From: Yuukianura sp. NJ FZ-2021
Lineage: Eukaryota
DNA length: 64,000 bases
NCBI GenBank assembly: GCA_046563655.1
Contig: CM102287.1
Location: forward strand, 6,200,001-6,264,000
Direction of reading: 5' to 3'
A program made the position numbers and the translations under genes. Below, piece by piece: positions 13,564 through 64,000 of this stretch. Below the pieces are notes generated by a model, which saw only the letters and a list, made by a program, of their open reading frames with translations, was not told the origin of the DNA and made no database searches. Position 1 is the first letter of the stretch. The number at the start of each line of letters is the position of its first letter.

Positions 13564-15452
13564 ATGTTTGTGATTCTGATTTTGACGGCTATTTTGGGCT
13601 ATCTCTGCTATCGGGCATGGTTCCAGAAACCTCCAAACTTTCCACCCGGTTAGCTAGCATGGAAGAACATTTTTCAGAACCATTAACGATTTTATTTAGT
13701 TAGTACGACTTTTTTTTTTATTATTTATAACAGGTCCATTTTGTTGGCCAATCATCGGTGCAATCCACATAACAAAAGATACACCACATTTAGCTGGACA
13801 AAGACTTGCAAAAATATATGGCCCTACCATTGGTCTGAAATTTGCAAGTGAATGGTCAGTCAAAAATTAATCCAAAGTAATTAAAAAATTTCTAATTAAT
13901 CGTTTTCATGATTTTTTTTTATAAGGAATATACTACTTCATGACCCCAAAACTATCCGGGAAGCCTTTAACGATCCGGCAACAAGTGGCAGGAGTGCAAC
14001 TGAGGCCACCGCATTCGTGCTTGGAGATGAATTCGGAATTTTGCAAGCGTCGGGAGATGTGTGGACGGAGCAGCGCCGATTTGCAATGCGAACTCTACGA
14101 GATTTCGGATTCGGCAAAGCGTCGATGGAGGAGATGATTCTGGAAGAGGCTCAAGAGCTCGTTGATTGGCTGAAGAAACAGGGTGGAAGGCCAGTAGAAC
14201 TCAAGAGACGCTTCAGTTTAGCAGTTGTGAACTCTTTATGGCGAATCCTTACTGGAGAGCGCTATGAACATGATGATCCAGCGCTTGTTGCTATTTTGGA
14301 AAATTTGGAGAGGTGAATTTGCGTAATTTCCAGATTTTTTGAATATGTTTTTGAATTTTTTTAATTGAATTTTTTAGTACTCAACGCCAACTCCTAGATT
14401 TCAGTGCTCCACTCAAAGTAGCTCTGTTATTTTTCTACCCCAAAATTGCAAAATTCTTTTCAAGTTATACTGGTTGGACCAAATTAGAAGAAACTGTGAA
14501 ATCTAGAACAGACTTGTTTGATAGAATTATTGACGAACATTTTGAAACATTGGATAAGAGCAATCCCAGAGATTTTGTCGATGTCTATTTACAAGAAGTT
14601 GAAAAGACTGACAACAGTACGTCCAGTTTCCATCCATCCATAGGAAGTAAGACAAGCTTTTACAAGTTACTTAAAAAGTTCTCAAAAATTTTCAACAGTT
14701 TTTTAAAACTATATCTTGCTGAAATCTAATATTAAGGACACAGTTTGAGATCCGTCATTTCTGACTTGTTTCTGGCGGGTTCCGACACAACTTCTGTCAC
14801 TCTGCTATGGACAATCCTCTATCTACTGCACAACCCGCGGGTGCTTGAAAAGATGCAAAAGGAATTGGATTCAGTTGTGGGAACTGAAAGGGCTCCAACC
14901 CTAAACGATCGAAAACAGTACAACAGCATCATAAAAACAAAATCAGACTAAAAAGTTTTTAAATGTTGATATGATTTTATTGTAATTGTTTGATTTTTCA
15001 GGTTACCGTATTTGGAGTGCGTTATAATGGAGACTATGCGGTACTCCTCAATAGTTCCAATTGGCGTAGCTCATATGTGCGTGCAAGATTGCAAGATTGG
15101 AGGCTACGACATTCCGAAAGGAACTTTGTTAAGTCCGAATGTTTACCACGTCCATCATGATCCAGAAGTTTGGGGCGATCCCGAAGTCTTCCGACCGGAA
15201 AGATTCCTTACTCCAGAGGGAACTTGCGTCGGACGACACGAGTCTTTCATGCCGTTTTCTGTCGGACGTCGTGTTTGCATGGGTGAAAGTTTGGCGCGTG
15301 ATTCGCTCTTCATTTTTACGGCTCTACTCGTTCAAAATTTTACGGTGGCTTTACCCCCAGGAGAAACTGAAATGCCGACGCTTGAAGCCAAAACTGGACA
15401 AGTCACCTTGCAGCCGCATCCGTTTCAAGTTAGCATGAAGAGTAGGTTTTAG
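13564..15452 (+). CDS. Cytochrome P450, CYP2 clan (CYP15/CYP304-like), multi-exon
   Basis: N-terminal TM anchor followed by PPGP. Motifs WTEQRRFAMRTLRDFGFGK, I-helix AGSDTT, ETMR (ExxR), PERF and heme-binding FSVGRRVCMGE. Exons joined by GT-AG introns. Confidence 0.95.
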
Positions 15453-19683: not shown

Positions 19684-20163
19684 GTGCATTGCCATTTGCC
19701 ACCTCCATTCGTCCACATTACAAGGATGCACCACATGTGGCTTCTGGGAAATTGACTCGCAAGTATGGTCCAATCGTTGCCCTATTTGCAACTGAACGGT
19801 AAACAAAAGGCTTCAAATCAGTCAAAATCCGAATGTCAGAAATGTTTAAAAAATAGCTACTTTTGTCGAACAAGCATACGGTTCCATTACGGTTACTGAA
19901 CTCATTCGTGAGGCTTTCAATCACCCTGCTGCGACTGGACGAACTTTGACCGAAGTAGACGCGTTCCTTGTTGGAGATGAATACGGAATTCTCCAAGCAT
20001 CACTTGACATTTGGAACACCATTTGGGATGAACATCGAAGATTTACAATGCGAATGTTACGAGATTGTGGGTTTGGAGGAGAGCGTTGATGGAAGAGGCA
20101 CACGATCTCGTTGATAGGCTGCAGAAACAAGAGGGGAGGCCAGTAGAACTTAAGTCACGCTAG
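19684..20163 (+). pseudogene. Truncated CYP2-clan P450 pseudogene, paralogue of the gene at 13564-15452
   Basis: Plus-strand fragments KDAPHVASGKLTRKYGPIV, EAFNHPAATGR..GDEYGILQAS..WDEHRRFTMRMLRDCGFG and EEAHDLVDRLQKQEGRPVELK mirror exons 2-3 of the intact CYP. A deletion/frameshift and stop follow GFG, and the 3' exons are absent. Confidence 0.85.
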
Positions 20164-20426
20164 AATTGACCAAAAACTTGTACTAGTACGCGGTTTTGCC
20201 TAACTTTCCTTTTCTATTTATCGAAGGAAAAGACGTTTTGAAATTTGAAGTTACCTGTCAAAGATCAAAATCTAAAGCAACCTGACCCTTCCTTTTCATA
20301 TTGAGTTAAACGAGAAAAAAAATGGTCTGGGCAACAGTCAGACACGGTTTTGCTAGTTAGCAAATGCATGTATGGTACTTAGTTAATGTGTTTTGTTCAG
20401 ACGAATGGCATGATGCCGTAGTATGT

Positions 20427-23400
20427 GGGACTCCCTAAAAGGCGGATCGCGGATTAGGTGGATTCACCTAAAGATTCACGTAAAACACTACGAAAAGACG
20501 GCTCCGCGCGCACTACAACAGAAAAAGCCGGATTGTTGCACGATATACTGAGAAATCGAAAATCTGGAGCATTATTTTAAGCATATAAAAAGATCATGAT
20601 GCGAGTGACATCATATTACATAAAACACAGTGTTAGGCTGCGGGCTGACGCATACTCTACCCTGAGTCATTGTTCTCTACCAATACTTTCGTCAGTTACA
20701 AAACTTATTGTATCCCACTGGATGTCAACTCAAAAATCCAATACGTTTATAGTCTCCTCACTTCCATTCGCTGCTTCACCCACTCTATATCCCCCGACGC
20801 ATGACAATGACAATTCGTTTTGTACAAAACAGGGTTGAAGTAAGCCAAATACTGAATAGTTGTACCCAGCTTTTGTTTTTTTGTCTCACTTTTTGTTAAT
20901 TTAACAATTGAAGGGGCCAGTCAAAGAAGTGCCTCTAGAAAATTTTGATTTTTAGAAAATCGTGTTACCAAGCCAATTTTTATCAAATTTTAATTTTAAT
21001 TAAAAGCGTCCGCCCGAAACTACGCTCTCGCAGTAAATTTCTTCTAGCGAAATCGCAAAAAATCGCGTGAAAAATCGCACATTGGATTATGACTTTAAAA
21101 AAATCGCGCGTTGTATTAAAATCCCATGAAAAATCGCATTTTGAATTAAGTTGGTGCGAAAAATCGCACGTTGTAACAACATCGCGCGAAAAATCGCACG
21201 TTGAATTAAAATCCCGTGAAAATCGCACGTTGAATTAAGATCGCGTGAAAAATCGCACGTCGAGTTAAGATCACGTGAAAAATCCCACGTTTAATTTATT
21301 TCAGGTTAAGAATCGGTGTATCGGATATCCACTTTTTTAGCATTCCATCCTTATATCCACGAGATATATTGATAAATCTGGATAAAATCCAGGTTCCAGT
21401 GGACGAAATTGGGTTGTTTCACCTGGAAGAAACCAATAAAACCCGGTATATCCCCCACTTTCGAGTAGAGTGGAAGAAGCATTTTATCCATCCATCAACA
21501 CTTAAAACTCGTATCCCGCGATAAAGATTACGTGAGAAATCCTACTAATATTTGAACGCCGTACGCAAGCATTCCACATGCGGCGTATCTGTAAACTTCA
21601 TAGATGTTTAAAACGTTTCGTATCAAAATGCTGAAATGGGACCGAAACACTTGCTAGCTCAGGCTTTGCAGTTTTACCGGCTCGGGTATGTGCCATACAT
21701 TTGCAACGGTTTAGAATTTTGAAAATTGGAAAATTTTTCCTAATGAGAAGTGAGGTGCCCTGCGATTTAGCGATTCTGGCACCCTCTTGAATCGCGTGCG
21801 CAATGCATCGGCTTGATTCATTGCCTTGATCTAATCTAACCCATAATATGCGTTTGCTTTCTAAGCGTATCTTTCAGCTGGTTTTACCTCCATTTACCGC
21901 GAAAAACTACTACCAACTGCCTGTATTATTTACGAGGACCACCGTTGCCACCGGTGCTCCGGAGTTAAAAAATATAAAAACGGAGTTATGCTTATGTTTC
22001 TTAACCAAAGTTTATGATCTGCGTATTTCCGTTACAAATGAAACTGAAAACGGTAAAATTATCTGTAAATGTTTCAAGTTTAATGCATCGCCCAAGCCCG
22101 CATCGCGAATCTGTTGTCCCAAACAAGGCGATTCGGATGTATCGTACGATAAGGAAAAGTGGCGGGATCGCCAGCGATTCATCGGGGCCTCTCAAATGGA
22201 AATATTACCTGTCTCGGTCACTTTTGGGAATTTCGATCCGAAAAGTCTGAATCTTCTGAAATGAGAGACCAGCATTTAATTTAAAACAATTTAATTTTCA
22301 CTTCATCCTGACATTTTTCACGCCATCGTATTTCAGGGTGCAATTTTTCACGCCATCGTTTTTCAGCGTGCGATTTTTCACCCAGTCTTAATTTAGCATG
22401 CGATTTTTCCACGATCTGGATCCAATGCAAAATGTATTAAACATACGAGTTTTAATGCCAAATTCGTAAAACGTGCGATTTTTATCATAAAATAAATTAT
22501 ACGCACGACTTTCAACGCGAAATATTTAAACGTGCAACTTTGAACACGAAATAAATTCAAGGCGCGATTTTTACCCCGATCCTTCTTAAATCAGATTTTT
22601 TTCGATTTAGTTAGAAGTATTTTTCGGGGAGCACGTAGTTTTGGGCCGACGCATGGAATTGAAATTTAAATTAATCTAAATCTCGTTTCATTTCTTTTTT
22701 TCGCCTGTGAACAAAAAAACGTCCGAAGGTCCTAATGGTGGTCCTTTAAAATTTTCAATATTTACGGTATTACGCTTCATAAGAAGTGCGAAGCGTAATC
22801 AATGTATGCACAAAAAATTAATTGTTGCTATCAACAACTGGAATCTGTAATCAACAAGATCTTAGAGGCACTTCTTTGACTGGCTCCTTCAATTGTTAAA
22901 TCATTTTTGGGACATTGTCTGTCAAACTGGTACGCAACAGTCTAGGATCTTCGGTGGCCTGGGGCCACCGAAAGATCCTAGTTCTGCATAAGAGGAAGAA
23001 AACAAAAAATAGCTGCAAGAGTCTAACCCTGGATGAGAGTACTTGAAATCGATACAATGACCCCGAAGACCGAAGCTGCATCTATTACTAACACGCCTGG
23101 AAGGATGTGTAAGTGATTGTATGTAGAGCCTTCATTTGTTATAGGAGGTACCATGTCCTAGTGATAACACTAGGTTTCTACATTAACATGTTTAACTTCA
23201 CCTTTAGTAAGTTGCGTATCCACTGTTGTAAGTATGTGAGTGGAAAAGAGATCCTCAGTCGCATATTTTTATTTTGATATCGTCGTTGTTATGCTAACCG
23301 GCACTGCCCGTGTAATTGTTGTAGGATTGCTCACCGTTTCTCTCCAAATATACCCTCCCGCTTTGGTAATTACTTGGCCGCTACGTCATATGGTGTCGAT

Positions 23401-42700: not shown

Positions 42701-44794
42701 TGAGATCAATTCAGAATTGGATTTCGTAATTTTTTCAAAACTATTAATCTATGGCGGAAATTGCGATTTTGCAACTTTGATTTAAAAAATCGAAGATCCG
42801 AAGAATTCGATTGTTTAGTTCGAACAATGAATCTGCTCAGGATTGAATGATGCAACTCTGGTGTATTTTTGTACGCTATGTTTTGAAATAGGAAGTTTGA
42901 ATGGCGTTAATTCAAACTTTGTAAACGTATTTTAAAATGTGCAATTACTCATGCCTGGAGATGTTGTGATTAAGCTGATTGTTAGATGAGTCATACTTTC
43001 AGAACATTATTCAGCGGGTGACTGGAGTGTTTGAAGTTTTGATTAAATTATTCATCTAAAGCCTCAGGAGGAGGTACAGTAACTAGTGGGAGTGTAAATT
43101 AAAATAGGGAGAAAGCAGGAATTACTGATGAAGAAAGTCTTCTAAATTGAATCACTTTCACTTTCAAGAAGCAATGACTAAACAGAGACCTACCATAAAC
43201 TAATACACTGAAAACCATCCCCCTGCCGCTGGCAAAAGTCTAAATCAGAAGCAAGACTTTAAATCAGAATCAGATAGCTTTCTCTTTGACTAAAATTGGG
43301 AAATTAATCACTTCAGTGAGCTCTCAACAGTCAAGATTAATTGCAAATAACCTCCCTATTTTAAACTCCCTGCTACCTTCCAACATCAACACAATTTTCA
43401 TTCCAACAACAAAAGAAATTTATGTGATGGAGTCTGCCAATTTCAAAATTGGAAGCTTCATTCTAATTAAAGGTCTTAGGCCAAGAAAAATACAAGGAAA
43501 TGAAAAGTCCTTCAGTAATGGAAACAATCAGTATCGCTTCATTACCACAACTTGAAATACAATTAGAATCATTTTGGGAGTTTTTTAAATTTGAAAGTTA
43601 TGACGGTTAACGAGTTTCGAAAAAGTTTTGGTAACTTTTGATTTGAAAAGTTTAAACACGTTACGTTTTTCGAAATACCTATGGTAAAATAAAATAAAAC
43701 GCCACATTTTTAGGATAGTTTTGGTTCGGGCATTCTTTCCCTGTGTAGATTCTTTTCTCAGAAGCAAAAAATTTTGGGTAGAACAAAAGAAAAGTTTCAG
43801 CAACTTATCGTTGGAAATGTTTCTGTAAGTATATTTGCTGGTCCGTGAGAAAATACTGCAGCTGAATTGCATCGGGAAAGTGAATATTTATGAAACAATT
43901 AGCAATTTTGTGTTTCTATTTTAATTAATGGGAAGAAAGAAGATTTAAAGATACTTTCAAGTCGTTTTTCTTTTGTATTTAACACGTCAGTCGCTTACCT
44001 CGCACTTTGCGTGTTTCTATTGTTATTATTTATACAATTGTTTCATCTTTCCTTCAACTTAATTATAAATGAGTCTCTCTCCTCAACGTTAAGTGAAAAG
44101 GGAGTACCTACTGCCTAAAATAAATCTCCTTCGTATATTTTCTAAGTTGTGTACACTTTCTATGAGTTGATTTATAGAGCAACATGTTGACCCCCGAAAT
44201 TAAGCAGCTTCTTAAGAAGGCTCTTCGTGACCTCAACACTTGTTTGCCCCCTATCCCTCTTCCCATCTCCAATTACTCCTCGGGAGTACTAATGTTTCCA
44301 CGAAATTTCAATAACGATTAAATTGAAAACTTATATAAACACAAAACTTATTTTTCATCAGAAATTTTACTCAAATGGTGAAAACTTCCTCTTATGTCAC
44401 GTTTTGTATTACATTAATCACTGTTATTAAAATCTGCCTCATGACAGGCCATAGGAAATCGAACCTCAAATGATTTTCACGTACGAGTACAACTAGGCTT
44501 GTGCATCATAAATCAATTTCTGTAATTAATTTCCAATTCACAGAACCAAACATAAACAAACCTACTTCTAATGCCAACATACTCCTTAATACACGATGTT
44601 TTGAAATTAGTTTTTCAGAATCACATTTTTCAAAATGGTTTTTTGAAAAGTTAAGGTAAAAAAAAAATTGAGATCGTGGAAAAGTGCGTGACGGAGGCTA
44701 ATTAATCCGAAAGTGTTTGGGCATCATTACGCCTTGTGAGGGATCAGGGCTCACATAGCTTGAGAGACACACGATGACAGTGCAGAAAAAATAA

Positions 44795-44869
44795 GTGACC
44801 GAGTGGGATTCGAACCCACGCCTTCTCCAATCCGGGGAGACAGCTCTAACCCTTAAGCTATCGAGTCAC
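44795..44869 (-). ncRNA. tRNA-like Pol III module in TRIM LTR (copy 1)
   Basis: Minus strand reads GTGACTCGA TAGCTTAAGGGTTAGAGC TG TCTCC-CCGGATT-GGAGA AGGC GTGGG-TTCGAAT-CCCAC TCGGTCAC: A box, anticodon-like arm, B box/T arm, then TTATTTTTT. Confidence 0.7.
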
Positions 44870-45082
44870 AATCTGCACAGGATAGAATCGGAAGGCTACC
44901 ATAACAGGCACTGTCCATTCCATACACCTCTATCCTTGGCGGTTGGGAGTGGGACTGTTCCCAAACGCCACATCACCCGCCCCTCAAGCCCCCTCACTGC
45001 CTTCCCGGCTTTCGGCACCATATGTGAGGGATCAGGGCTCACATAGCTTGAGAGACACACGATGACAGTGCAGAAAAAATAA

Positions 45083-45157
45083 GTGACCGAGTGGGATTCG
45101 AACCCACGCCTTCTCCAATCCGGGGAGACAGCTCTAACCCTTAAGCTATCGAGTCAC
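45083..45157 (-). ncRNA. tRNA-like Pol III module in TRIM LTR (copy 2)
   Basis: Identical to 44795-44869. Confidence 0.7.
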
Positions 45158-48100
45158 AATCTGCACAGGATAGAATCGGAAGGCTACCATAACAGGCACT
45201 GTCCATTCCATACACCTCTATCCTTGGCGGTTGGGAGTGGGACTGTTCCCAAACGCCACAGCCTTGTGCTCCATTTCGATTTCTGGATTTCACCAAAAGC
45301 CTTTTGGATAATCACCGTCTGAACACAGCGTGTAGCAATGGACCATAATCTTTAGGATAGATTTATCCCCAGTAGAATTACTTTTCTCACTTAACTTTAC
45401 TCTCCTTCAGGATCTTTTTCGGTAAGAAATGCTCTTAAAGTTGGAAAAGTTTTAAGAGAAAGCTTTTCCCTCTACTACTTTCAGTCCAGTTTTCATGCTT
45501 CAGCAACTCCATTGTAGAAAACGATAGAGTTCGCCATCCCAATCTTACAAAGCTCTTGATCATAGTCACGCATAAAAGTTACCTAACAGAACCTAATATA
45601 AAACCCAATGTGTTTTTTAGAACCTAACCTAAAACCAAACCCCAGCAAATATAACATTTTAAAAGAGTGTCCTAATGCAGGTTGAAAGCAGTAGTTTTGC
45701 AAGTTTTTTTTGCTTCTAGAGGAAATCTAAGCTGCAAGGAGGAAAAAGTGCTTACTGATCGAGCATTAGCGTTGGGCAGATTAGGTTAAGAAATTTTGTT
45801 AGGCTAAGAGTTCAGATTATGTTTGGTTAGACTAAGGAATGTTAGGTTAGGTTAGGCCAAGGAATTCATGAAAGCGTTGGCGGTAACAAAAGAATTGAAA
45901 ATGGATTTGACCATAGAAGCGGTAGTAACACCTTTTGAATGACCGAATAACTTTAGACAGTGTCACACAGTGAAAAATGTTGAGGTAAGTTGGCATTGTT
46001 CACTTGAATCTCTCCAGAGACTACGTAAATCCTTATTTCTTAAAGTACAAAAGTCCTTTTGAGGATTCATCTTTTGGTTCCTACGAAGTTCATATGAAAA
46101 GTGTATCCAACTGTGCTCACAAGTACAGTTTAATTCACTTTGATTGACAGACATTGTGGGAACATCTTCTTACAATTTCTCCTTCTTAGGGAACGCGTAA
46201 CACTTTAAGGGATCACCTTCCATTTAAGGACTCCTGAGCCCTTCATCTCATAAGAAATCTAAAACCGTCAAAAAAGATGATGCTCGTTATGTTTCTCACA
46301 TATTTTGTCAAAGAGGATGGATTTCTGTATTGTTGGTTAAAATTCTGAAGGCTCAAATACTTCGAAGGTCAAGGGTTGCGTTAGGTTAGGCTGACCATGT
46401 CCAATCACTTTTCACGTCTGTGTTGAACTTACATGAAACTGAAACGTCCATCAGTACAAAAACAAACCGTATGATGATGAACGTCCGAGCTCTAAAGTTA
46501 GGCTTTTAGGCTATTCCGTTATAATGTTAATTTTGAAAGTTAAGTTAGCTTTGGTTAAGTTATAACCTAGTTTTCAAAATAATAAATTTTGAAAAGTTGA
46601 ACAAAAAAAAACTTGGAAATGGAAATTTATTATGGAAAATGTAAAAAGAATGAGACCTGAAGTAACCCCGTGGAGCGGAAACGGAGATGACAGAAAATGA
46701 AACCAAGATCTGTCAAAAAAGAAAACGGAATGCTTAAGTTAGGTTAGGTTTTTTGAAAAACCGGGTTTAAGGGTCCTCTCTCTCTTCCTTTGTATCTGTC
46801 TTTGTGACCCCTTAAATTATGACCCTACGTATTATAAGTTATTTTAGGCTAAAATCCACTTCCGACAATGATGAACAACTCTATTCTAAAACTAGGTGTA
46901 GGAATTTTTAGACTAAAGAATGAAACTTTTTTCTCTTTACTTTTTAGTTCAGGGATTCTTTTTAACATTTGAAAGATCTAAAAGAAACTTGTTTCCAAAA
47001 TTCTTTTCAAGACTAAAAGAACTAAAAAACGACTGTTCCTTGAACTTCAAAATTTTAGAGCAGCAGAAGATGCAACGTTATTTTTGGCGCCTGATAAACT
47101 TGAAAGGTGATGTTATGGGTCATCTCGTGCGTCTAACTCTTTTAGATGACAGTTGACCTGTGACTTGCACGCTTTTTCGAATGACGATTTCGAAACAGCA
47201 GTTTCTAGTTCTAACAAATAACGTCGCTTGCAGTATCTTTATCTACACGCTGACTACTGTACGATTTGTGGCTTATTCAGTAATTACGATATCAGTGACA
47301 AGGGTTGTCGCCAGTCTGACTCGTCTGAGGATTAGTTGCATACAACCAAAACAAGAAGCGTCACTTACTACGGCACTGTTAACCGCTTCTATTAAATTTT
47401 CATTAAAGAAATGGCTTCGCAGCAAGGTCAAATCACCAAAAAAGTGACGTTTGACCTTTAAACCTGACCCTGAAAAGCAATAGAAGGTGTGAGCTTTTTG
47501 AAAATAGACCACACCGACATGCTGCAAAAGGCTGCTTTTGTTCAAATTTAATTGCCCAACGCCTGTAGGAACAAAAGGAAAATGTGAGTTCTAATTGTGT
47601 TTGTTCTTTATAAAAAAAAAATAGAGAGAAAGGAAATGTTGTCCTATAATTAACCAATTTCATTGAAATATGGAAGGCAGGACTTAATTACACAAAATCC
47701 GGTTGCAATGTAGTCAGAAATGATGTAAATGCCAAAAAATAGGTAAATTAAATTGTATTACTACTATAACAAAATTTTTAATACAATCTTTTAAATTGTA
47801 CTGGTTTAAAAAAAATGCAGTACAAAAACAAAACAAAATCAGCAAACAAATTTCAAAATTTTCAATTTTTCAAAAAAAAATTTGATAGTGTCAAAATCTG
47901 TGCTTTTACCTATTAGAGCAGAATTTTTGATTTAAAGAATTCCGTCGTTCAATGGCACTCACGAACCCAAAATATTTTTAGTGCATGAACTTCGATGTTG
48001 TTGACAGTTTGGGGTTTGACAAAATTGTGTCTTTTCTACAGTTTTTTCTCCTGTTTTTGGACATGTCTGGATTGAATTGACGTGTTGAAGAGAGTCAAAA

Positions 48101-51100: not shown

Positions 51101-51689
51101 CAGCAAATGAATCCTACGACTACCAAATTTTTGAAGTTGTTTGAAAGGTCAAAAGGAGGTCAAACTACAGTTTCCAATTAATCACAAGCATGAGCAATGT
51201 CCTACATTCACTAAAACAATCAATCAAACGGAAATTACTTTTTCATGTAACCCAACCATATCCTAAGTAACTTTTTTTTAATTTTAAACGTTCTGGATAG
51301 AAATTATTGAAAACTGTGAACTCAAGGAGCATCCAAGGCCAATGTTCATACATATTTCAAAAATGTCACAATTTTCAAATTTGTTGTTCAAAATTACAAA
51401 GTTCCTGCTACAAATTGTTCAAAAACAAAAATATTAGATGCCACGTTTAGTTTATTTTGGTTTTTCTGATGCAAACCGAAAGCCAGCGGAATTCAAATTA
51501 ACGTTAGAACTAACTGCTAAATTTAGAATATCCGGATTACAATTGAAACTTCTAAAGCCAAATGGAGAACAAAGGATGACTGAAGCCAAATTATTTCCTT
51601 CCTGGGAGAGAAGGGAATTAATTAAAGCATGATGTTAAAACAAATGTCAATAGCAGAGGAAGTAGATAGCTATTCTAAAATTACCAAGT

Positions 51690-53509
51690 TCATTGCACTT
51701 TGTTCTTAGCTGCGACACTTTCGATCAAGTCTGCTGCAGCTGATTGGCTATTTGTAGATTGAATTCTTTTGGCAATCGAGGTCATACGTTTTTCCAAAAG
51801 TTTATCTGCCAGTAGTTTCTCAATACTGCCCAACAGCTCTGTTTCGGTAACCTCGTATGGGTTACAACAAAGCCCAAGTCCAGTTTCGTAAATCCTCTTT
51901 AAAAAAAACATGAAAAATAAAAATTTTAACATGAAAAATTATTGAAAGTGAAAATGCAACTAATTTTTATTTTAGTTACAGTTGCGTTGTCTAGTTGATC
52001 CCAAAGCATCGCCATAACCAGGACACGTTTGCCGTAGTAGAACGATTCCGTCACTGTATTGTTCCCCCCATGGGTAATAACAAGGTCGACTACCGGAATG
52101 ACCCTGGTCTGCGGAACACTTTTCTCTCCCCACATATTGTCAGCCAGGTCAAGTTCATCTCCCCGGGGTCCTAAAAGTGTTCAAAGTCCTGCAAATCAAG
52201 GTTCTTTGACAACCAGATTGTATTTCCTAAAATAGGTTGTCCAATAATTCAGCGTTTTCAAAAATCTTGCTTCGAACTACTTTTAGCACCAATCCCATTT
52301 AGATTACAAACAAAAAATTATCATGGAAAGGCAGATTTGCTACTTTCAAATTCAAATTTTAAAACTTCGAGTTATTAGACAACCTGGTGTAGACAAAGTT
52401 TTCTTTTTGTTTACGAACTTTGCTGGAATTAAGCATAAAAAATTTAACTTTTGCAGAATCTACCTTTTGACACAATGAATCTGTTTGGTGACTTTGCAAG
52501 GATTTTGATCAACCTTTTCATAAGGTCAATGTCCGCTGAACCAATTGTGCCAAGCGAGAAGTAAATGAGTTTGCCTTGACCTTCCTTAAGTTTTTCGGGT
52601 ACTTCGAAACTTCCCTCAGTGTTTCTTACGAAAGCGTCAAAACGATACAAATTCTTCGGTGGATTTAGTCGTATGTAATCCAGTTCAAATGGAAACATGC
52701 AAATGTTTGCCCAGGGACTGGGTTTGACTAGAAGCGGGTGCGAGAATTCTTCAAGTTCTGGCCCGCCATTTTCAATAAGCCATTTTTTAAATTTTTGAAA
52801 AAAGTCTCCGTACACCATTTCCTGACGTTTTTTAAATATTTTCCATTCATTCCTGTCTCCGTATGCGGAAAGCCCAGAATTCGATGGCGGGAGATTTATG
52901 TCCGGAAACATCAGCGGATTGCACGAGCAAGACAATATCCAAGGCGTCTCTGGAAATTTAGCAAAATGAATCAACTAAAATTCTTGCTCGAGACAGTTTC
53001 TGGCAAAAATATTTTATCCAACATTATTAAATATTATTATATAACCTAATTATTACGACGTAAAATTGAAACTGACTTTCGTTCATTAGTGCCGGAGTGT
53101 GAAGGACTTGATCAGCAACGACAACATCCGGCTTCACCCGCTCCATAATTCGTTTGAGAACTGCATCCTCTTTTTTGATTTGCTCAAACATTCCTTCAAA
53201 TGCGTCCAATGTCATCATCTCGTTTACTTGGTCACGTGATAGTATATCTGCACCAGCGAATTTTGCCATAAGTTTTGCGAATTCATCTCCATCGTCTTTT
53301 GCCGCCGATTCTTGCAACGTTTTCTCAGTTGTCACGTAGATCACTTCTTCAGCGAAACCCTGAGCTTCCAATTTTCCTTTCCAGTTCTCGGGCGTTGCAA
53401 AAACAACTTTGTGTCCGCGGTTGCGCAATTGTTCAGCTAGTCCGATACAGGCGTTTACAGGACCCACTGCACCAACTGGAGCAAACAGAAATGTGTACTT
53501 TTGTTGCAT
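51690..53509 (-). CDS. Bacterial-type (MGT/YjiC-like) GT1 UDP-glycosyltransferase, copy 1
   Basis: Motifs LAEQLRNRGHKVVFA, KPDVVVAD, LIYFSLGTIGS and VPQTRVIPVVDLVITHGGNNTVTESFYYG..WDQLDNA. Three introns; no signal peptide or TM. Confidence 0.92.
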
Positions 53510-54051
53510 GTTTTCCAAATGATTATTGGTTTTTGAAAATTGGGTGAGTATTTAATGCTCTTCGATATTCGACTGCGACAATGTTTTCAACTGCCTTGAA
53601 AAAAAATTTGTGTAAACTGACATCATATTGGAGGGTGCGGTTTCTACAGATTTAAAAGATTTGACCTTCACTTTATAACACTAAAGCTTGGAGCCCACTT
53701 AATTAAGACCACTCCTGCAATTTCAGTTGTCACTTGCCACTCTACTATTCCAGTTTTCTGAACTTTTCTGGACACTAATATGAATTGAAAATTCAGGAAA
53801 TATGAATTGAGAATTTAGTAAATGATTCCGAATGAAATAAGAATTGGAGCGAGTGCTTGTAGAAATGAAAGCGGTTTTACAGTGGTACGTCCTTTCGTTG
53901 TTTTAAATGATTTTCACACAATTAAAGCATGATCCAGACAAATACAGCAGTACATAACCTGTAAAAGTTGGCAAAATATGGAAGGAATAGAAAGGTTATG
54001 GAGTTTGCAAGTCGTGAACCAGTAAACTTAAAGTATGTTTAAATTGTTGTT

Positions 54052-55589
54052 CTAAACTCGGCATTTTGCTGCAATCTTTTCAATCAAATCTGCCGCTGCG
54101 GATTGGCTATTGGAGGACTGAATTCGTTTTGAAATAGATTTCATTCTTCTCTCCAACAGATCGTCGGCCAGTAGCCGCTCAATGCTGTTTAGGAGTTGGT
54201 CCTCGGTAACCTTATAGGGATCTAGACGCAAGCCCAAGCCAGTATCGTGAATACGCTGCGCATTATCTACGATTTTGAAAAATATGTTTCGCCATTATTC
54301 AAAGTTATACGCTGACACGGTCATAAACTTTTAAACTTTTAGGAAATTCTAACCGAGTTGATCCCATAGATGCCCTAGAACTAACGTCCGTTTGCCAAAG
54401 TAGAAAGATTCTGTCACAGTGTTGTTCCCCCCGTGGGTAATCACAAGGTCAACCAATGGCAGCACTCTCGTCTGGGGAACGCTATTTTCACCCCACATAT
54501 TGCCAGCCAGTTCGAGTTCATCTCCACGGGGTCCTTCAAACATTTAAAGTTGTCAAAATAAAAATAAAAATTTGACTTTTTATAAAATTTACCTTTGGAC
54601 ACAATGAATCTGTTTGGTGACTTTGCGAGTAATTTGATGAGTCTCTTCATGAGGTCAATGTCTGCTGATCCAATTGTACCCATAGAGAAATACACAAGTT
54701 TCCCCGGACCTGTCTTCAGTTTCTCCGGAATTTGAAAGCTTCCTTCAGTATTTCTTACGAAGGTGTCGAAGCGGTGCCAATTCGGTGGATTTGGACGAAT
54801 CGGAGTATAATCCAACTCAATTGGGTACATGTACAAATTCCCCCAAGGCGAAGGCTTGACGAAATTAGGAAAAGTGAATTCTTCTGTGGGCCCGCCATTT
54901 TCGATATTCCATTTCTTAATATCTTGCAAAAAATTTCGAAATACGTCGTTGGCTTTGTCGTTATAAATTTTCCATAGACTTCGGTCACTATCCTCTGCAT
55001 ACCCAGAATATGCTGGAGGGACATCGGGAGTCTTCGAAATTCCGATGGGGTTGTAAAGAACACAATGTATCCACGGAGTACCTAACGCCACCACCAATTA
55101 TCATTTCAATTCAATAATATTTATTATTCCTCTTAAATTATTGAAGTTACCGCTATCCATTAATGCTGGTGCGTGAATAATTTGATCAGCGATTACCACG
55201 TCCGGTTTTACTTTGTTCATGATTTCTTTCAACCTTTGATGTTGATTTTTGTTTTGGTTAAAAAGTTCCTCCCAAATTTCAAGATGCAAAGCTTCATGTC
55301 GCTCAATTGGTGGTAACCGAGCCGCAGCACAGGATTTAGCCAAAATCTGTGCAAACATGTCGCCGCGATTTTGTTGCTCTGTTGCATTCTTTGGACTTTC
55401 GTTTGACGCAGGCGCGTCTAACAATTCTTCGATAAAACCGAGCGCTTCCAGTTTTCCTTTCCAACTTATGGGCGTTGCGAATACGACCTTATGCCGCCTG
55501 TCACGCAGTTGTTCCGCTAATCCTATTAAGGGATTCACACTTCCTGTGGCGTCCATTGGAGCAAACAGGAACGTGTAACAATCTGCCAT
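54052..55589 (-). CDS. Bacterial-type GT1 UDP-glycosyltransferase, copy 2
   Basis: Same motifs, four exons. Checked intron 1 (55082-55150) and intron 3 (54267-54353), both GT-AG and in frame. Confidence 0.92.
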
Positions 55590-56780
55590 GATGTCTGAAA
55601 CAACACGGACTGAAATGTTCGCTCGAAAATGATTTTTGAATTCAAACTTTTCTTTTTTATACTTTTTTGATTTTATTTAAATTGATTACTGATTGCCTCC
55701 GCTGGTGCTGGACTACCAGGAATCTGGTGCTTTTTATAAGCAAACCATTTTTGTAACCGAGTCAAATTTTTGAATTGGAATTCGATGAGTACGTAAAAGC
55801 GAATCTAAGCCAGAGATAGTGCAAACTCGTGGAGAACTCAAGGTTAGTAACTTGTACGTTTACGTAACTACGCTTTAGTGCAATACGGAAAGCACGAAAC
55901 TTACCTGTCGAAGACAAAGAAAAAAAAACTAAAAATAAAAACTCGATAAACGCGTTAATTGAATTCAAATTCAGCAAAAACTTGTTGAAAGTAGCTCTTT
56001 TTATTTATAATGTGAGCTAAAGTACAAGGTTTGTCATGAAATAGCTATGCACGTTACATTGGAAAAAACAAAATCAAAGCAATCGAGGGTTCCATTTGTC
56101 TTTCTAAAACAGATTGAGGAAAACATCTCTTGAGTGTGTTTTTTTTTTTCATCCAATTCAAGGTCGAGACTTTCGTGTTTTGTTTCACGTGTAATTTTTT
56201 TTTCCAGTAAAGTCGACCATAATTTCAATTTGACACCATCAATTAAGTACAATAGCGTGAAGTGCTCTTTTTATATAATAATATTAGCAAGATTAAAATA
56301 CTTCTTTTGAAAATCATGACAGAATAACCCTGAACTTGGTTCAAAATGTTGCTCCTACTGGATTTGGCTTTCGCTTCATAACACTAAAAGCTTGGGGCCC
56401 ACATTTAATCTCCTGCAATTTCAGTTGTCACTTGCCAATCCACAATGACAGTTTTTTGTACTTTTTCCACAGTGTCTTCCACACCACAATGAATGTCTAC
56501 GAGACAAAAATGTGAAAATCAATATGAAATATGGATTGAGAATTTAATAAATGATTCCGAATGAAATAAGAATTGCAGAGGGTTGTGGAAATTAAAGTGG
56601 TTCATGGTACGTCTTGCGTTGTTTTAAATGATTTTCATACAATTAAAGCCTGTTACAGACAAACAGAGCAGTACACAACCTATAAAAGTTGGCAAAATAA
56701 GCAAGGAATAGAAAGCTTATAGAGTTTGCAATTAGCAAACTTAGTAACCAGTAAACTTAAAGTGTGTTTAAATTGTTGTT

Positions 56781-58319
56781 CTAAACTCGGCATTTTGCTG
56801 CTAGGTTTTCAATCAAATCTGCCGCTGCGGATTGGCTATTGGAGGATTGAATTCGTTTCGAAATAGATTTCATTCTTCTCTCCAACAGGTCATCGGCCAG
56901 TAGTCGCTCAATGCTGTTTAGGAGTTGGTCCTCAGTAACCTTATAGGGATCTAGACGCAAGCCCAAGCCAGTTTCGTCTATACGCTGGGCATTATCTACG
57001 ATATGGAAAAAAGTGTTTCTAAATTATACAAAGCATTATGCCGAAGCAGTTGAAAACTTTTGGCGTTTACAAGAAATTCGAACCTAGTTGATCCCATAGA
57101 TGCCCAAGAACTAGCATCCGTTTGCCAAAGTAGAACGATTCTGTCACAGTGTTGTTCCCCCCGTGGGTAATCACAAGGTCAACCAATGGCAGCACTCTTG
57201 TCTGGGGAACGCTATTTTCACCCCACATATTCTCTGCCAGTTCGAGTTCATCCCCCAAGGGTCCTACAAATATTTAAAATTGTCAAAATAAAAATAAGAA
57301 TTTAACTTATAAAATTTACCTTTCGACACGATGAATCTGTTTGGTGACTTTGCGAGTAATTTGATGAGTCTCTTCATGAGTTCAATGTCTGCTGATCCAA
57401 TTGTACCCATGGAGAAATACACAAGTTTCCCCTGTCCTGTCTTCAGTTTCTCCGGTATTTCAAATCTTCCTTCAGTATTTCTTGCGAAGGTGTCGAAGCG
57501 ATGCCAATTCGGTGGATTTGGACGAAGCGGAGTATAATCCAACTCAATTGGATACATGTACAAATTTCCCCAGGGCGAAGGTTTGACGAAACTAGGAAAG
57601 GTGAAATCGTCTGCTGGCGGCCCGCCATTTTCGATATTCCACTTCTTAATATCTTGAACAAAATCTCGATATACCTCTTTGGCTTTGTCGTCATAACTTT
57701 GCCATAGACTTCGATCACTATCTTCTGCATATCCAGAATATGGTGGAGGGGCATCGGGAGTCCTCGAGATCCCGATGGGGTTGTAAAGAACGCAAAGTAT
57801 CCACGGAGTACCTAACGCCACCACCAATTATCTTTTCAATTCGATCATATTTATTATTCCTCTTAAATTATTGAAATTACCGCTATCCATTAATGCTGGT
57901 ATATGAATGACTTGATCAGCGATTACCACGTCCGGTTTTACTTTGCTCATGATTTCTTTCAACCTTTGATGTTGATTTTTGTTTTGATTAAAAAGTTCCG
58001 CAAAAATTTCAAGATGCAAAGCTTCATGTCGCTCAATTGGTGGTAACCGAGCCGCAGCACAGGATTTAGCCAAAATTTGTGCAAACTTGTCGCCGCGATT
58101 TTGTTGCTCTGTTGCATTGTTTGGATCTTCGTTTGACGCAGGCGCGTCTAACAATTCTTCGATGAAACCGAGCGCTTCCAGTTTTCCTTTCCAATTTATG
58201 GGCGTGGCGAATACGACCTTATGCCGCCTGTCAAGCAGTTGTTCGGCTAATCCTATTAAAGGATTCACACTACCTGTGCCGTCCATTGGAGCAAACAGGA
58301 ACGTGTAACAATCTGCCAT
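56781..58319 (-). CDS. Bacterial-type GT1 UDP-glycosyltransferase, copy 3
   Basis: Very similar to copy 2 in exons, introns and flanks. Confidence 0.92.
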
Positions 58320-59102
58320 GATTTCTGAAACAGCAAGGACTGAAATTTTCCTAAAGAATGATTTTTAACTCAAACTTTCCTATTTTATACTTTTTTGATT
58401 ACTACTTAAATTAATTACAGAATGGCTCCGCTGATGCTGGAGTGGCAGGAAGCTTTACGTGTTTTTGCTTATTATAAGCTCACCATTTTTTAACAAAACC
58501 AAATTGTTGGATTGCAACTCTTTTAGATAAAAGCAAATCAAAGCCAGAGATAATGCAAAATTTTGAAAGTGACGAGAACTCAAGGTTAGTAACTTGTCGT
58601 TTTACTTAACTCGTTGTGCAATGCGGAGATCGTGCTGTATGTAAGTCCGCGTTTTTAAGCACCACACTTAACCTGTCAATCAGCAAAAAAAAAAAATTAA
58701 AAAATAAAGACTTGATAAACGGGTTAATTGAATCCAAATTCAACAAAAACTTGTTGAAAGTAAATCTTTTTATTTATAATTTGTAATAGAGTACAAGGTT
58801 TGTCATGAGATAGCGATCAATCAATGTTAGTAGATTAGAAAAAGCAAGATTAATGCAATCGTGGTTTCCAATTGTCTTTCCCGCACAGAATTGAGAAAAA
58901 CATCTCTTGAGTTTTTTTTTTCATCAAATTCAAGGTCGAGACTTTCGTGTTTTGCTTTGTTTAATTTTTTTCGAATAAAGTCGACCGTAATTTCAATTTC
59001 ACACCATCAATTCAGTATCATAGCGTGCTCTTTTTTATACAATATTAGCAAGAATAAAATACTCCTTTTGAAAATCATGATTAGAATAAACCTGAATTTG
59101 GT

Positions 59103-60984
59103 TCAAAATGTTGCTCCAACTGAATTATTCTTTGCGATGCTTTCGATCAAATCTGCGGCTGCAGATTCGCCTTTGCTGGATTGAATTCTTTTGGCAATAG
59201 ATTTCATTCTTCTCTCCAAGAGGTCATCCGCCAGTAGGTGCTCAATGCTGCGTAAGAGTTCTACCTCAGTAGCCTCATATGGGTCCAAACGCAAACCCAG
59301 GCCAGTTTCGTGTATGCGTTGTGCATTATCTAATGTTTTCAAAAAAAAGGCAGTATTAACCAAAACAACGTTTTAGAACTCTGGAATTTATAACAGATGC
59401 GAACCTAATTGATCCCAAAGATGCCCTAGAACTAGCGTCCGTTTGCCAAAGTAGAACGACTCTGTCACTGTGTTGTTCCCTCCGTGGGTAATCACAAGGT
59501 CAACCAATGGCAGCACTCTCGTCTGGGGAACGCTATTCTCTCCCCACATATTGTCAGCCAGTTCAAGTTCATCCCCCAGAGGTCCTAAAATGTATTCAAA
59601 GTTATCAAAATCTATTAAAAATTTGATTTTATGAAATTTTAATTTACCTTTTGACACAATGAATCTGTTTGGTGATTTGGCAAAGATTTTAATGAGTCTC
59701 TTCATGAGGTCAATGTCTGCTGATCCAATTGTACCCATGGAGAAATACACAAGTTTCCCGTGACCTGTCTTCAGTTTCTCCGGAATTTCAAAGCTTGCTT
59801 CAGTATTTCTTACGAAGGTGTCGAATCGATGCCAATTCGGTGGATTTGGACGAAGCGGAGTATAATCCAACTCAATTGGGTACATGTACAAATTCCCCCA
59901 GGGCGAAGGTTTCACGAAATTAGGAAATGTGAATTCGTCTGGCGGCCCGCCATTTTCGATATTCCACTTCTTAATATCTTGAACAAAATTTCGATACACC
60001 TCTTCGGCTTTGCCGTCATAAGTTTTCCAGAGACTTCGGTCACTATCTTCTGCATATCCAGAACAAGGCGGCGGGACATTCATGCGGGATATTCCGATGG
60101 GATTGTAAGTAACGAAAAGCATCCACGGAGTCCCTGCCGTCATAACAAATTTTGATACCAATTTTAATAATACTACCTTATAATCATTTGTCCGTCCGTC
60201 CGTCTGTATCATTGAAGAATTATATTATTATGAAGAAGAAACTACTAGACCAATTTCATTACGGTTTTCACCGAATGACATCTCACGACGGTCGTTCATT
60301 CACTATTGAATATCATCCGGATCTAGGACCTTCTACTAGGTGAAAGGTCAAGGTGATTGACCTTTTTAATATTAACCAGAAAAATAAACTAACAAAAGTT
60401 GTTCCTTTGACATTGAGATTGAGAGAGTAACTTTCGTATAGTTGAACCAAGTGTTTTTGACCTCTCCGAATTTGTCAAGGTCAACATTCTAACATAGTTC
60501 ACAGTATGCATGGGTAAGACTTAGCTTATTTATTGTTAAATTATTGAATTTACCGTTATCCATTAATGCTGGTACATGAACTAGTTGATCAGCGACTACC
60601 ACATCCGGTTTTACTTTGTTCATGATTTCTTTCAACCTTTGATGTTGATTTTTGTTTTGGTTAAAAAGTTCCGTCCAAACTTCAAGATGCAAAGCTTCAT
60701 GTCGCTCAATGGGAGGTAACCGAGCCGCGGCACAGGATTTAGCCAAAATTTGTGTAACCTTATTGTCGGCCTCATTTGTTTCTCCTGTTGCGTGGTTTGG
60801 ACCTTCGTTTGACGCAGGCGCGTCCAATAATTCTTCGATGAAACCGAGCGGTTCCAGTTTTCCTTTCCAACTCATAGACGACTTTGTGTCGCCTGTCACG
60901 CAGTTGTTCAGCTAATCCTATACAGGGAAGGACACTGCCTGTAACGTCCATGGGACCAAAAAGGAACGTATAACAGTCTGTCAT
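59103..60984 (-). pseudogene. Bacterial-type GT1 UDP-glycosyltransferase, copy 4, frameshifted in exon 1
   Basis: Relative to copy 2, gggcgttgcgaat is replaced by ag at ~60876 (net -11 bp). This splits exon 1 into ORFs 60772-60984 and 60489-60899. Later exons look intact. Confidence 0.8.
60170..60530 (+). mobile_element. Probable HINE-like insertion in intron 1 of UGT copy 4
   Basis: This intron is ~350 bp longer than in copies 2, 3 and 5 and contains a (gtcc)n microsatellite at ~60190-60207. Ends not precisely resolved. Confidence 0.5.
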
Positions 60985-61259
60985 AATTTCTGAAATAGCA
61001 CGAACTGAAATTTTTGTGCCAAAATTATTTTAAGTTCAAACTTTTTTTTACTTTGTTTGATTCCAAACTTGATTTTTGATTGCCTACTCCAGGGCAAGAA
61101 TGGCACAAAGTCTATGCATGCTTGTGATTTTTATAAGCATACCATTTTTTACCAATCCCAAACTGTTTGATTGTTATTCTTTATTACACATAAGTTAATC
61201 AAAGCCATATATATTGAAAAATTGTAAAAGTGCGGAGAACTCTAGGCAAACTATGCTTT

Positions 61260-61655
61260 TATTAAGTATCACTTGATACTTATTGGGATTGTCTTGTCCG
61301 TCCATCTGTACAGCTTATAATTCCGTAACCACAAGACCAATTTCTAAGCGTTTTTCTTGAATTAGTAACTGCTGACCTGATGACTAAAAATCATGTTTTG
61401 GGTTTAACTCAAGTGATCTCTAATAATGACAAAGGTGAATGCTCCCTTTACAATTCGGAAACCGATGGACCGATTCGGATTTCGGAAGAGGTTTGTGAGC
61501 ATGGATCATTGACGACGCGGAGACAATTATTCTGATGACCTCAAGTGACCTCTAACAATATCAGAGGTGAAGGTCAACAATATTCTGCAGGGGAATTCTC
61601 TATAACTGATCTGACGATACTTACTTGTATCGTCTTTGTAAGAAGTCTATTTAGC
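61260..61655 (+). mobile_element. Probable HINE-like element upstream of UGT copy 4
   Basis: T-run, then palindrome taagtatc-actt-gatactta (61263-61282) and a gtccgtcc microsatellite. 3' hairpin gacgatac-ttactt-gtatcgtc (61613-61634) overlaps the gatactta subTIR. Confidence 0.55.
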
Positions 61656-62147
61656 TGGGTTAGTGTAGTGTGAGATATGGAGCACGTGCATTAGTCCCCC
61701 TACTTCTGGACAAATTTAAAAAAATACTGAAAACTGGTTAGTTGAATGCAAATCCATCCAAGGTTGTCGAAAGTAGCTCCTTTTAATTATAATATGTGAC
61801 GACGCTACATCATGAAGCACGCTACTTTAGAGCGTGTGTCATGAGATGGTTACGGACGTTACATTAAAATGACAAACAAAATTGTAAAGCTATTATTGAT
61901 GTTTCTACCAGTTGTTCTTGTAGTAGTTTTTTAACTAAATTTTAAAATTCAAGGTCGCAACCTTCGTGTTTTGTTTCAGGTAGTATTCCTTTTTTTTCGA
62001 CTAAGTTGACTTTGTCGATTAAGAGTAAATTTGACATCAATGTATAACATTAGAGTGCTTTCTGTTTATACTGTATAATATTGCCAATAAGCAAGACTTA
62101 AGTCCTCCTTCGTTTTCTAAATCGTGATCCTATAACTCTAAAATTGA

Positions 62148-63680
62148 TTAAAATGTTGCTCCAACTGGATTATTCCTTGCAATGCTTTCGATGAAATCTG
62201 CTGCTGCACATTGGCTTTTGGTGGATTGAATTCTTTTGGAAATAGATCTCATTCTTCTCTCCAAGAGGTCATCCGCCAGTAGTTGCTCAATGCTGCGAAG
62301 GATTTCTTCCTCAGTAGCCTCGTATGGGTGCAAACGCAAACCCAGGCCAGTTTCGTGTATGCGTTGTGCATTATCTAAAGTTTTCCAAAAAAAAAAAAAT
62401 GTCAAAAAAAATCAAAAACAACGTTTTAAAATTCAGGCAAAAGAGAAGCGAACCTAGTTGATCCCAAAGATGCCCTAGAACTAGCATCCGCTTGCCATAG
62501 TAGAAGGATTCTGTCACAGTGTTGTTTCCCCCGTGGGTAATCACAAGGTCAACCAATGGCAGTACTCTCGTCTGGGGAACGTTATTTGCACCCCACATGT
62601 TGTCAGCAAGTTCAAGTTCATCTCCCAGAGGTCCTAAAATTATACAAACTTATTAAAATAAGTTTACAAAATTTCGTAGTATGACTTTTATGAAATGTAC
62701 CTTTCGAGACAATGAATCTGTTTGGAGACTTTGCAAGTATTTTGATGAGTCTCTTCATGAGGTCAATGTCTGCTGATCCAATTGTACCCATAGAGAAATA
62801 CACAAGTTTTGCCTGCCCTGTCTTTAGCTTTTCAGGCACTTCGAAATGCTCTTCAGTACTTCTGATAAAAGTATCGAAGCGATGCCAATTCGGTGGATTT
62901 GGGCGTAACGAAGTGTAATCAAGTTCAAATGGGTACATGTAGATGTTACCCCACTCGGATGGTTTGAAAAGGAAAGGATAGGAAAAATCGTCTGTTGGCC
63001 CGCCATTTTCGATCGTCCATTTTTTGACGTCTTGAATAAAATTACGATAAACTTTGTTGGCTTCATCCTCATAAATTTTCCAAAGACTGCGGTCACTATC
63101 TGTTCCATATCCAGACTGCGGCGGTGGGACATTTAACCCGGAGAGTCCAATGGGGTTGTGAGAAATGCAATGGATCCATGGAGTTCCTAACGCAAAAACG
63201 TTGCTGACAATCAAATATTTTCTGATTTGCTTTTCAGCTTTTATTGAATTTACCACTGTTCATTAAAGATGGCACATGTATAAGTTGATCAGTAATTACA
63301 ACGTCCGGTTTCACTTTGTCCATGATTTCTTTGTACCTTCGATGTTGGTTTTTGTTTTGTGTAAATACTTCCTCCCAAATTTCAAGATGCAACGCTTCAT
63401 GGCGCTCAATTGGCGGTAACCGAGCCGCCGCACCGGATTTAGCCAAAAGTTTTGCGAATTCGTCGCCGCCACTTTCGTTTTGCTTTCCTTCGTTTGATGC
63501 AGGCGCCTCCAACAATTCTTCACTGAAGCCAAGCGCTTCCAGTTTGCCTTTCCAGTTTATGGGTGTTGCAAATACGACTTTGTGTTGCCTATTACGTAAC
63601 TGTTCGGCTAACCCTATGCAGGCATTAACATGACCTACAGCGTCCATAGGAGCAAACAGGAACGTGTAACACTTCGGCAT
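62148..63680 (-). CDS. Bacterial-type GT1 UDP-glycosyltransferase, copy 5 (retains catalytic His)
   Basis: MPKCYTFLFAPMDAVGHVNACIG..., with the same four-exon structure and C-terminal HGGNNT/WDQ motifs. Confidence 0.92.
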
Positions 63681-64000
63681 GATTTCTAAAATTAATACCT
63701 AATTGCTGAAGCTTGTATACTTCACAGGAAAATTAGGTTTAAACTTTTCCGCAAACAATTTTAATAGTACTAAAGTTGTCGCCTGGATTACTTTTTACTA
63801 ATGTGGCCATGCGTGCTGTTTTTAAGCAGAACGATTTTTTCTCACCCAAAAAAAAACTGTTTGTTTAATAGTGTTATTAGATAAAACATATCAAAGCACG
63901 AAAGGATGAAAAATTGTAAACTTGTTATCGTAAGTGCAGGTTATCGAGCGTGTACTTTTCTAAAACTCAATATTGACTTGCGGAGTTTCTGTCAAAACCC

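Follow-up and report, generated by a model that had tools for sequence, protein, structure and literature searches.

The 64,000-nt window analysed here spans positions 6,200,001 to 6,264,000 of contig CM102287.1 in the Yuukianura sp. NJ FZ-2021 assembly (GCA_046563655.1), and all coordinates below are counted within it. At 44731-45264 it contains a miniature retroelement with two identical long terminal repeats (LTRs), each of which carries a tRNA-like sequence. In structure the element is a member of Helenus, the terminal-repeat retrotransposons in miniature (abbreviated TRIMs) with tRNA-derived sequence in their LTRs. Within Helenus it is a new family, set apart by a short-word search of the published consensus file. 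Taken as a whole, it very probably represents an intact minus-strand copy of this new family, recently inserted at a GCCT target; it would be mobilised in trans and may be driven by RNA polymerase III (Pol III). The combination of a real and recent insertion, a Helenus-type TRIM and a mobile family is held with high confidence.

The two direct repeats were identical at 238 of 238 positions, starting with TGTG and ending with CACA on either strand, and GCCT was found on both sides of the pair. The interior of 50 bp (44973-45022) comprised, in minus-strand order, the dinucleotide TA, an 18-nt primer-binding site (PBS), a 7-nt spacer and a 23-nt polypurine tract (PPT) with 78% purines. All these parts had been proposed in an earlier sequence-only reading, namely the identical 238-bp TGT...ACA LTRs, the GCCT target-site duplication (TSD), the 50-bp interior, a tRNA-Phe-type PBS with one mismatch and a PPT, and each was recovered. 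Its orientation required correction: it reads along the minus strand, which makes 45023-45260 the 5' LTR (Table 1). Without the duplication the element measured 526 bp, and its longest open reading frame (ORF) with an ATG start encoded 41 aa. The G+C content of the LTR was 51%, compared with 37.5% for the window. Neither TATAAA/TATAWA nor AATAAA/ATTAAA was present on either strand of the element. Read in the sense direction, the LTR contained a single stretch of at least four consecutive T, a run of six (T6) located 4 nt past the tRNA-like module as delimited by Rfam. With short TG..CA LTRs, PBS, PPT, no coding capacity and a TSD with a corresponding empty site, the element is a TRIM. It was the only copy in the window: a blastn search of the 64 kb with the repeat returned chance matches of at most 26 nt, and no second tRNA-Phe PBS was present elsewhere in the window.

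Table 1. Features of the element, in window coordinates.
Feature	Position	Strand	Remarks
Target-site duplication GCCT	44731..44734	.	Downstream copy in element orientation
3' LTR	44735..44972	-	238 bp, TGTG...CACA, 51% G+C; identical to 5' LTR
T6 run, 3' LTR positions 182-187	44786..44791	-	Pol III terminator-like; predicted 3' end of genomic RNA
tRNA-like module, 3' LTR positions 104-179	44794..44869	-	ARAGORN; Rfam tRNA; fold
Polypurine tract GAGGGGGCTTGAGGGGCGGGTGA	44973..44995	-	Directly upstream of 3' LTR; 18/23 purines
Primer-binding site TGGTGCCGAAAGCCGGGA	45003..45020	-	2 nt (TA) after 5' LTR; 17/18 to tRNA-Phe oligonucleotides
5' LTR	45023..45260	-	238 bp; direct-repeat comparison
T6 run in 5' LTR	45074..45079	-	A full-length transcript started at the module would need read-through
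tRNA-like module of 5' LTR	45082..45157	-	Predicted to serve as internal Pol III promoter and to begin R; ARAGORN, Rfam
Target-site duplication GCCT	45261..45264	.	Upstream copy in element orientation

Empty site and related copies

Contigs of the public sequencing runs X1, X2, X4 and X6 (four of the six runs listed; X6 is an RNA library) were compared with the locus. Two contigs bridged the locus without the element, both extending well beyond 31 nt to either side of the joint. Record 5 of X1 (organism A; 512 nt) followed 44534-44734 and resumed at 45267 with one letter in between, its sides measuring 201 and 310 nt. Record 16 of X4 (organism B; 2376 nt) joined 44732 to 45267 with three letters in between and sides of 966 and 1034 nt. 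The X1 contig held a single GCCT, in keeping with a target not yet duplicated, and the X4 contig GCGT at the same place. Two more empty-site joints in X2, with sides of 28 and 23 nt, were left uncounted. Differences from the window amounted to 4 of 511 flank letters in X1 and, in X4, to 63 letters plus 13 gaps over a flank length of 2000. The insertion is thus lacking both in another haplotype, belonging to a very close genome, and in a relative diverged by about 3%. The empty-site contigs identify the repeat pair as an insertion and not as a chance repeat. Since the LTRs are identical and the empty site persists in other haplotypes and in a related organism, the insertion is very recent. The empty-site check that had been proposed was thus successful, and the description as an intact and very young TRIM was borne out.

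The filled allele was found only in the window and every listed bridging contig showed the empty site, a pattern that would also fit an assembly artefact or a local tandem duplication. Neither would yield TG..CA repeats in which PBS and PPT are positioned with single-base accuracy, or a 4-bp duplication of a target that is single in the empty X1 allele. The same LTR and internal sequence also occurred in independent runs, in two organisms and in an RNA library. An artefact or tandem duplication is regarded as extremely unlikely.

Dozens of distinct contigs resembled the LTR at 85-100% identity. Contigs that fitted two places, and were therefore LTR-derived, amounted to 79 of 99 in X1, 156 of 226 in X2, 42 of 48 in X4 and one of three in X6. 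Sorted by identity (at least 99%, 95-99%, 90-95% and below 90%), all placed contigs were distributed as 22, 17, 36 and 24 in X1, 77, 37, 61 and 51 in X2, and 12, 6, 16 and 14 in X4; these are numbers of contigs and not of copies, and sequencing depth is likewise no measure of copy number. The LTR contigs of X4 had a depth below that of the flanks. Four of them, records 17, 18, 19 and 21, showed no difference from the window over 44735-45051, in a run that is empty at the locus. One of these four spanned an LTR, the internal part and the next LTR. Record 17 started precisely at the first base of the LTR, as expected of an assembly graph in which a single repeat has several different flanks. In X6, which originated from an environmental sample, three contigs covered 44791-45240 and the flanks had no coverage. 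One of them was the same as the window across positions 153-238 of the 5' LTR, the internal part and positions 1-50 of the 3' LTR. The element belongs to a multi-copy family with several variants, old and young, in two organisms. A single copy without dispersed relatives or an assembly artefact had been named in the sequence-only reading as speaking against it. Instead, the empty site, many LTR-matching contigs and identical LTR-internal-LTR junctions in X4 were found.

The same contigs bear on the idea that the element is a one-off product of internal deletion from an autonomous LTR retrotransposon with the same LTRs. Identical contigs of LTR, 50 bp and LTR were present in X4, a run with the empty site, and in X6, a run without flank contigs, and hence the 50-bp form exists elsewhere. 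A sister variant in X2 had the same PPT end followed by another PBS. In addition, an LTR of 238 bp with a T6 run and without a poly(A) signal would be ill-suited to a multi-kilobase RNA polymerase II (Pol II) transcript. A one-off deletion is accordingly considered improbable.

tRNA-like module and proposed transcription

ARAGORN called a 76-nt cloverleaf, tRNA-Ser(GGA), on the minus strand in both LTRs. The Rfam tRNA model scored 39 bits at 44796-44867 and again at 45084-45155, compared with a gathering score of 29 bits. In the Rfam alignment the D, anticodon and T arms were intact, and the acceptor stem had one non-standard pair and one gap. The cloverleaf fold reached -28.3 kcal/mol (z -1.78), a modest gain over shuffled sequences. 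A 28-nt word of the module matched twice in the window and not at all in 100 shuffles. Rfam returned no 5S rRNA in the element, its only hits being tRNA and one sub-threshold plastid motif. An exact 58-nt word of the module had no match in the metagenome contigs. Box B (GGTTCGAATCC, LTR position 157) was perfect. The box A-like sequence (TAGCTTAAGGG, LTR position 113) contained TAGCT, corresponding to the TRGCY part of the Helenus motif. A tRNA-like module with A and B boxes on the PBS strand had been predicted; the module and box B were confirmed, box A was found only in part, and the length by ARAGORN was 76 nt rather than the 75 nt claimed.

The anticodon loop read CCGGAUU, with C at position 33 and U at position 37. 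Real tRNA-Ser has a long extra arm, for which a module of 76 nt leaves no space. From this length, loop positions 33 and 37 and the imperfect acceptor stem, the module is taken as a tRNA-derived sequence and probably not a working tRNA gene. Since tRNA finders call each LTR a tRNA-Ser(GGA) gene, families of this kind inflate annotated tRNA gene counts.

Loose ends behind 44818-44819 and 45106-45107 were recorded in X1, X2 and X4, with 7-24 contigs per run matching only the acceptor/T-arm half of the module. These contigs continued into another tRNA-like sequence that was similar among them and shared the CCGGA core of the anticodon loop. They may represent a repeat family of tRNA origin that is related to the module and may have donated it to the LTR.

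In the proposed cycle, the tRNA-like module with its boxes A and B would act as an internal Pol III promoter. Transcription would start near position 100-104 of the 5' LTR and stop at the T6 (LTR positions 182-187) of the 3' LTR, yielding a genomic RNA of about 370 nt. The LTR would accordingly be divided into U3 at about positions 1-100, R with the tRNA-like module at about 100-187 and U5 at about 188-238. A fraction of the transcripts would read through the T6 of the 5' LTR, and only these read-through molecules would be copied. The minus strand would be primed by a tRNA-Phe at the PBS, the plus strand by the PPT. Gag, reverse transcriptase and integrase would be supplied in trans by an autonomous LTR retrotransposon, probably of the Ty3/gypsy type, with tRNA-Phe as its primer and 4-bp duplications at its insertion sites. 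Synthesis of the genomic RNA by Pol III is mildly favoured because TATA and poly(A) signals are missing and because a module followed by a T-run recurs in Helenus and in Cassandra, a TRIM of plants.

The module might instead be a passenger, derived from an old insertion of a tRNA or a short interspersed nuclear element (SINE), and give rise to a short Pol III transcript at most. The template would then be provided by Pol II or by read-through from outside. This explanation shares the TRIM core, and its probability, judged substantial if somewhat below an even chance, refers to the transcription step only. A T6 run is a strong Pol III stop in animals, and here it is positioned before U5 and the PBS. 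The many contigs of X1, X2 and X4 whose match is confined to the 3' half of the module would fit a separate tRNA-derived donor family, and Kojima states that the Pol III promoter activity of Helenus is not experimentally validated (PMC10886601). A passenger would be harder to reconcile with the absence of a TATA box, AATAAA and ATTAAA from both strands of the element. It would also have to account for the conservation of boxes A and B across the Helenus families described, box B being perfect here, and for the recurrence in independently arisen families of a T-run after the module (fungal Helenus) or of terminators (Cassandra).

The RNA library is relevant to the read-through step of the proposed Pol III transcription. 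If the X6 contig across the 5' LTR, the internal part and the 3' LTR was derived from RNA, transcripts do pass the T6 of the 5' LTR. As a sign of transcription the X6 contigs are a weak hint. The end of the X6 contigs at the first T of T6 was rejected as evidence for termination since record 18 of X4, a DNA contig, breaks at the same point.

Several observations weigh against the reading of the element as a recently inserted, Pol III-driven TRIM that is mobilised in trans. The T6 located 4 nt past the module should halt most Pol III transcripts at about 85 nt. The fit of box A is partial, with GGG after A in place of the YGG part of the motif. The X6 contigs may be derived from carry-over of DNA from a multi-copy element. 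No autonomous partner was seen directly in the window and the run contigs, and neither a second copy with its own TSD nor a solo LTR was read directly among the run contigs. None of the contigs listed joined a flank of the locus to the LTR. Finally, at 45265-45266, directly after the downstream GCCT, the filled allele had TG and the empty-site contigs of X1, X2 and X4 had A, a discrepancy that may reflect either haplotype variation or an integration scar.

Primer tRNA, candidate partner and genomic surroundings

Published oligonucleotides against the 3' end of tRNA-Phe from fly and human both begin with TGGTGCCGAAACCCGGGA, from which the PBS differed at one position. The exact 18-nt PBS was found in metagenome contigs with 46 matches at 44 loci, most of them in loci of 51-71% G+C without an LTR-like context. 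In three eukaryote-like contigs, L009, L021 and L023, the site was placed 2 nt after ...CA. This placement suggests, without proof, that some eukaryotes possess a tRNA-Phe matching the PBS at all 18 positions. Self-priming by the tRNA-like RNA of the LTR was rejected, as its CCA-added complement fitted the PBS at only 8 of 18 positions.

One X2 contig with a loose end behind 44994 had the PPT end in common with the element and continued into a different PBS. This PBS began with TGGCGCCCAACG, was of the tRNA-Lys-CTT type and shared its last seven letters with that of the element. The contig may represent a sister subfamily that switched its primer tRNA. A PBS of the tRNA-Lys-CTT type is present in many Helenus families (Kojima 2024, Figure S2, PMC10886601).

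In L009 (1-3138, minus strand), ...ACA was followed by TA and then by the same 18-nt PBS as in the element. Downstream of the PBS were a gag of 762 aa, comprising an Arc-like capsid region (E 2e-6) together with a CCHC knuckle (Pfam E 3e-6), and then an aspartic protease ORF running off the contig. Arc descends from Ty3/gypsy gag. Judged by these predicted domains, L009 is part of an autonomous LTR retrotransposon, which means that autonomous Ty3/gypsy-like elements with this primer site exist. As a lead towards the partner, this agrees with the inference that animal Helenus use Gypsy-type partners (Kojima 2024, PMC10886601). ORFs were viewed in eight PBS-matching loci and four ORFs were scanned with Pfam; retroelement domains were detected in the two ORFs of L009 only. 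A tRNA-like sequence was found in none of seven PBS-matching metagenome loci, L009 included, and LTR-like direct repeats in none of the four loci tested. Beyond the PBS, the matching metagenome loci, again including L009, showed no relation to the element.

The boldest version of the proposal is a currently transposing Pol III-type TRIM in which module and T6 form R and whose sister subfamilies switched the primer tRNA between Phe and the Lys-CTT type. This version is rather doubtful. The element sequence was identical in two organisms whose flanks differ by about 3%. If the family is indeed transposing, it would be the first Helenus family caught moving and a tractable system for asking whether Pol III can produce the genomic RNA of an LTR retrotransposon and how transcripts get past the 5' LTR terminator. 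The LTRs are identical, other haplotypes have the empty allele, further identical copies exist and an RNA library contains the sequence; the family is therefore possibly still moving, which makes it suitable for experiments on Pol III-driven LTR retrotransposition.

The surroundings of the element are DNA without recognisable genes. A Pfam scan of 24 ORFs between 38 and 52 kb detected nothing except the first exon of a glycosyltransferase at 51926-52180. Elsewhere the window held intron-bearing genes of animal type, encoding a clan-2 cytochrome P450, an SLC22-like transporter (one exon), a leucine-rich repeat protein and a C2H2 zinc-finger protein. The P450 gene comprised several exons at 13250-15450 (plus strand), and an exon fragment of 83 nt with 80% identity was located 6 kb downstream at 20090-20172. 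Identity of the P450 exon to named proteins of molluscs, echinoderms and springtails was at most 52%. Five tandem units of about 2.7 kb with intron-bearing, bacterial-type MGT/EryCIII-like glycosyltransferase genes occupied 51680-63700 (minus strand). Their best matches, on short metagenome contigs, reached 55-56%, and among named eukaryotes the values were 46-47% for bdelloid rotifers and 42% for an oribatid mite. They may constitute an expanded gene family of bacterial origin. By the P450 and glycosyltransferase exon matches, the host is an invertebrate-like eukaryote with no near relative among the named species of the protein collection searched. An intronless ORF of 526 aa at 9751-11331 (minus strand) had weak lipase_3/Mbeg1-like matches and 77 relatives, nearly all metagenomic, with a best identity of 43%; a foreign origin of this gene is possible. 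Two repeat structures were also noted. A 30-nt tandem repeat (five overlapping 89-nt copies) at 21100-21307 had an inverted partner about 1.1 kb away at 22315-22425, and the pair has the appearance of subterminal repeats from a DNA transposon some 1.3 kb long. A near-palindrome at 1153-1441, with 137-nt arms that are 82% complementary and 15 nt apart, looks like a miniature inverted-repeat transposable element.

Comparison with known systems

Helenus was described in 2024 as TRIMs whose LTRs contain tRNA-derived sequence and enclose a PBS and a PPT (Kojima 2024, Biology 13:119, PMC10886601). The TSD is 4 bp in animals and 5 bp in fungi and plants. Recorded animal hosts are Arthropoda (chalcidoid and cynipid wasps), Brachiopoda, Chordata, Ctenophora, Mollusca (pteriomorph bivalves) and Nemertea, and Table S1 gives ranges of 104-323 bp for the LTR, 43-621 bp for the internal part and 311-1263 bp for the full element (PMC10886601). 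The motifs TRGCY..YGG (box A) and GGTTC (box B) are kept across families. The statement in the sequence-only reading that Helenus combines tRNA-like LTRs with 4-bp duplications in animals agrees with this description. The present element, with 238, 50 and 526 bp and a TSD of 4 bp, falls within the published ranges. It shares with Helenus the short LTRs with tRNA-derived boxes A and B, an interior limited to PBS and PPT and the lack of an ORF. The nearest builds are the fish LTR-11_DR group (LTR 181-205 bp, internal part 43-48 bp) and the Lingula families (internal part 58-60 bp). In the T-run just past the module, the element resembles many fungal Helenus consensus LTRs. Isotype calls disagree in most Helenus families, whose module does not encode a working tRNA (PMC10886601).

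The primer type distinguishes the element. The types listed for animal Helenus are Lys, Leu, Trp, Arg, His, Ile, Pro, Glu and Ser (PMC10886601), and the tRNA-Phe type of the element is outside this list; 'Phe' does not occur in the Kojima supplement. The element thus adds tRNA-Phe to the primer types known for tRNA-bearing TRIMs. Seven element-specific words of 11-13 nt had no match in the Kojima consensus file (Data S1), a type of search that detects close relatives only. A generic 14-nt word of the T arm matched one fungal family in this file, Helenus-5_CroRib. The tRNA-derived LTR module is thought to originate from a SINE, and Helenus to have arisen several times (Kojima 2024, PMC10886601). 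Because Helenus is defined by structure and probably has multiple origins, the lack of a word match marks the element as a new family and not as a non-member.

Cassandra of plants and Ajax of nemerteans are likewise TRIMs with an LTR module derived from a Pol III gene. Cassandra LTRs carry Pol III promoters and terminators, and these terminators pose the same puzzle as the T6 of the element. The module of Cassandra and Ajax is derived from 5S rRNA, whereas that of the element is derived from a tRNA, and the TSD of Ajax is 5 bp. Ordinary TRIMs such as PbTRIM of the harvester ant have the same non-coding miniature arrangement of LTR, PBS, PPT and LTR and are mobilised in trans. They differ in the absence of a tRNA-like module and in their presumed transcription by Pol II. 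The tRNA-like head with A and B boxes is common to the element and to SINE2. However, SINE2 elements have no LTRs, PBS or PPT, whereas the module of the element sits within LTRs of 238 bp, in a unit ordered LTR-PBS-PPT-LTR and bounded by a 4-bp TSD. SINEs are copied by enzymes of long interspersed nuclear elements, resulting in longer and variable duplications. Within the literature searched, the term 'TRIMp3' was used in the retrotransposon sense only by Kojima (2024). The names Helenus and TRIM appeared jointly in four papers of that literature, one of which does no more than cite Kojima. Helenus or 'TRIMp3' elements are known from the consensus sequences of that study, which are complemented here by an intact copy with signs of current activity.

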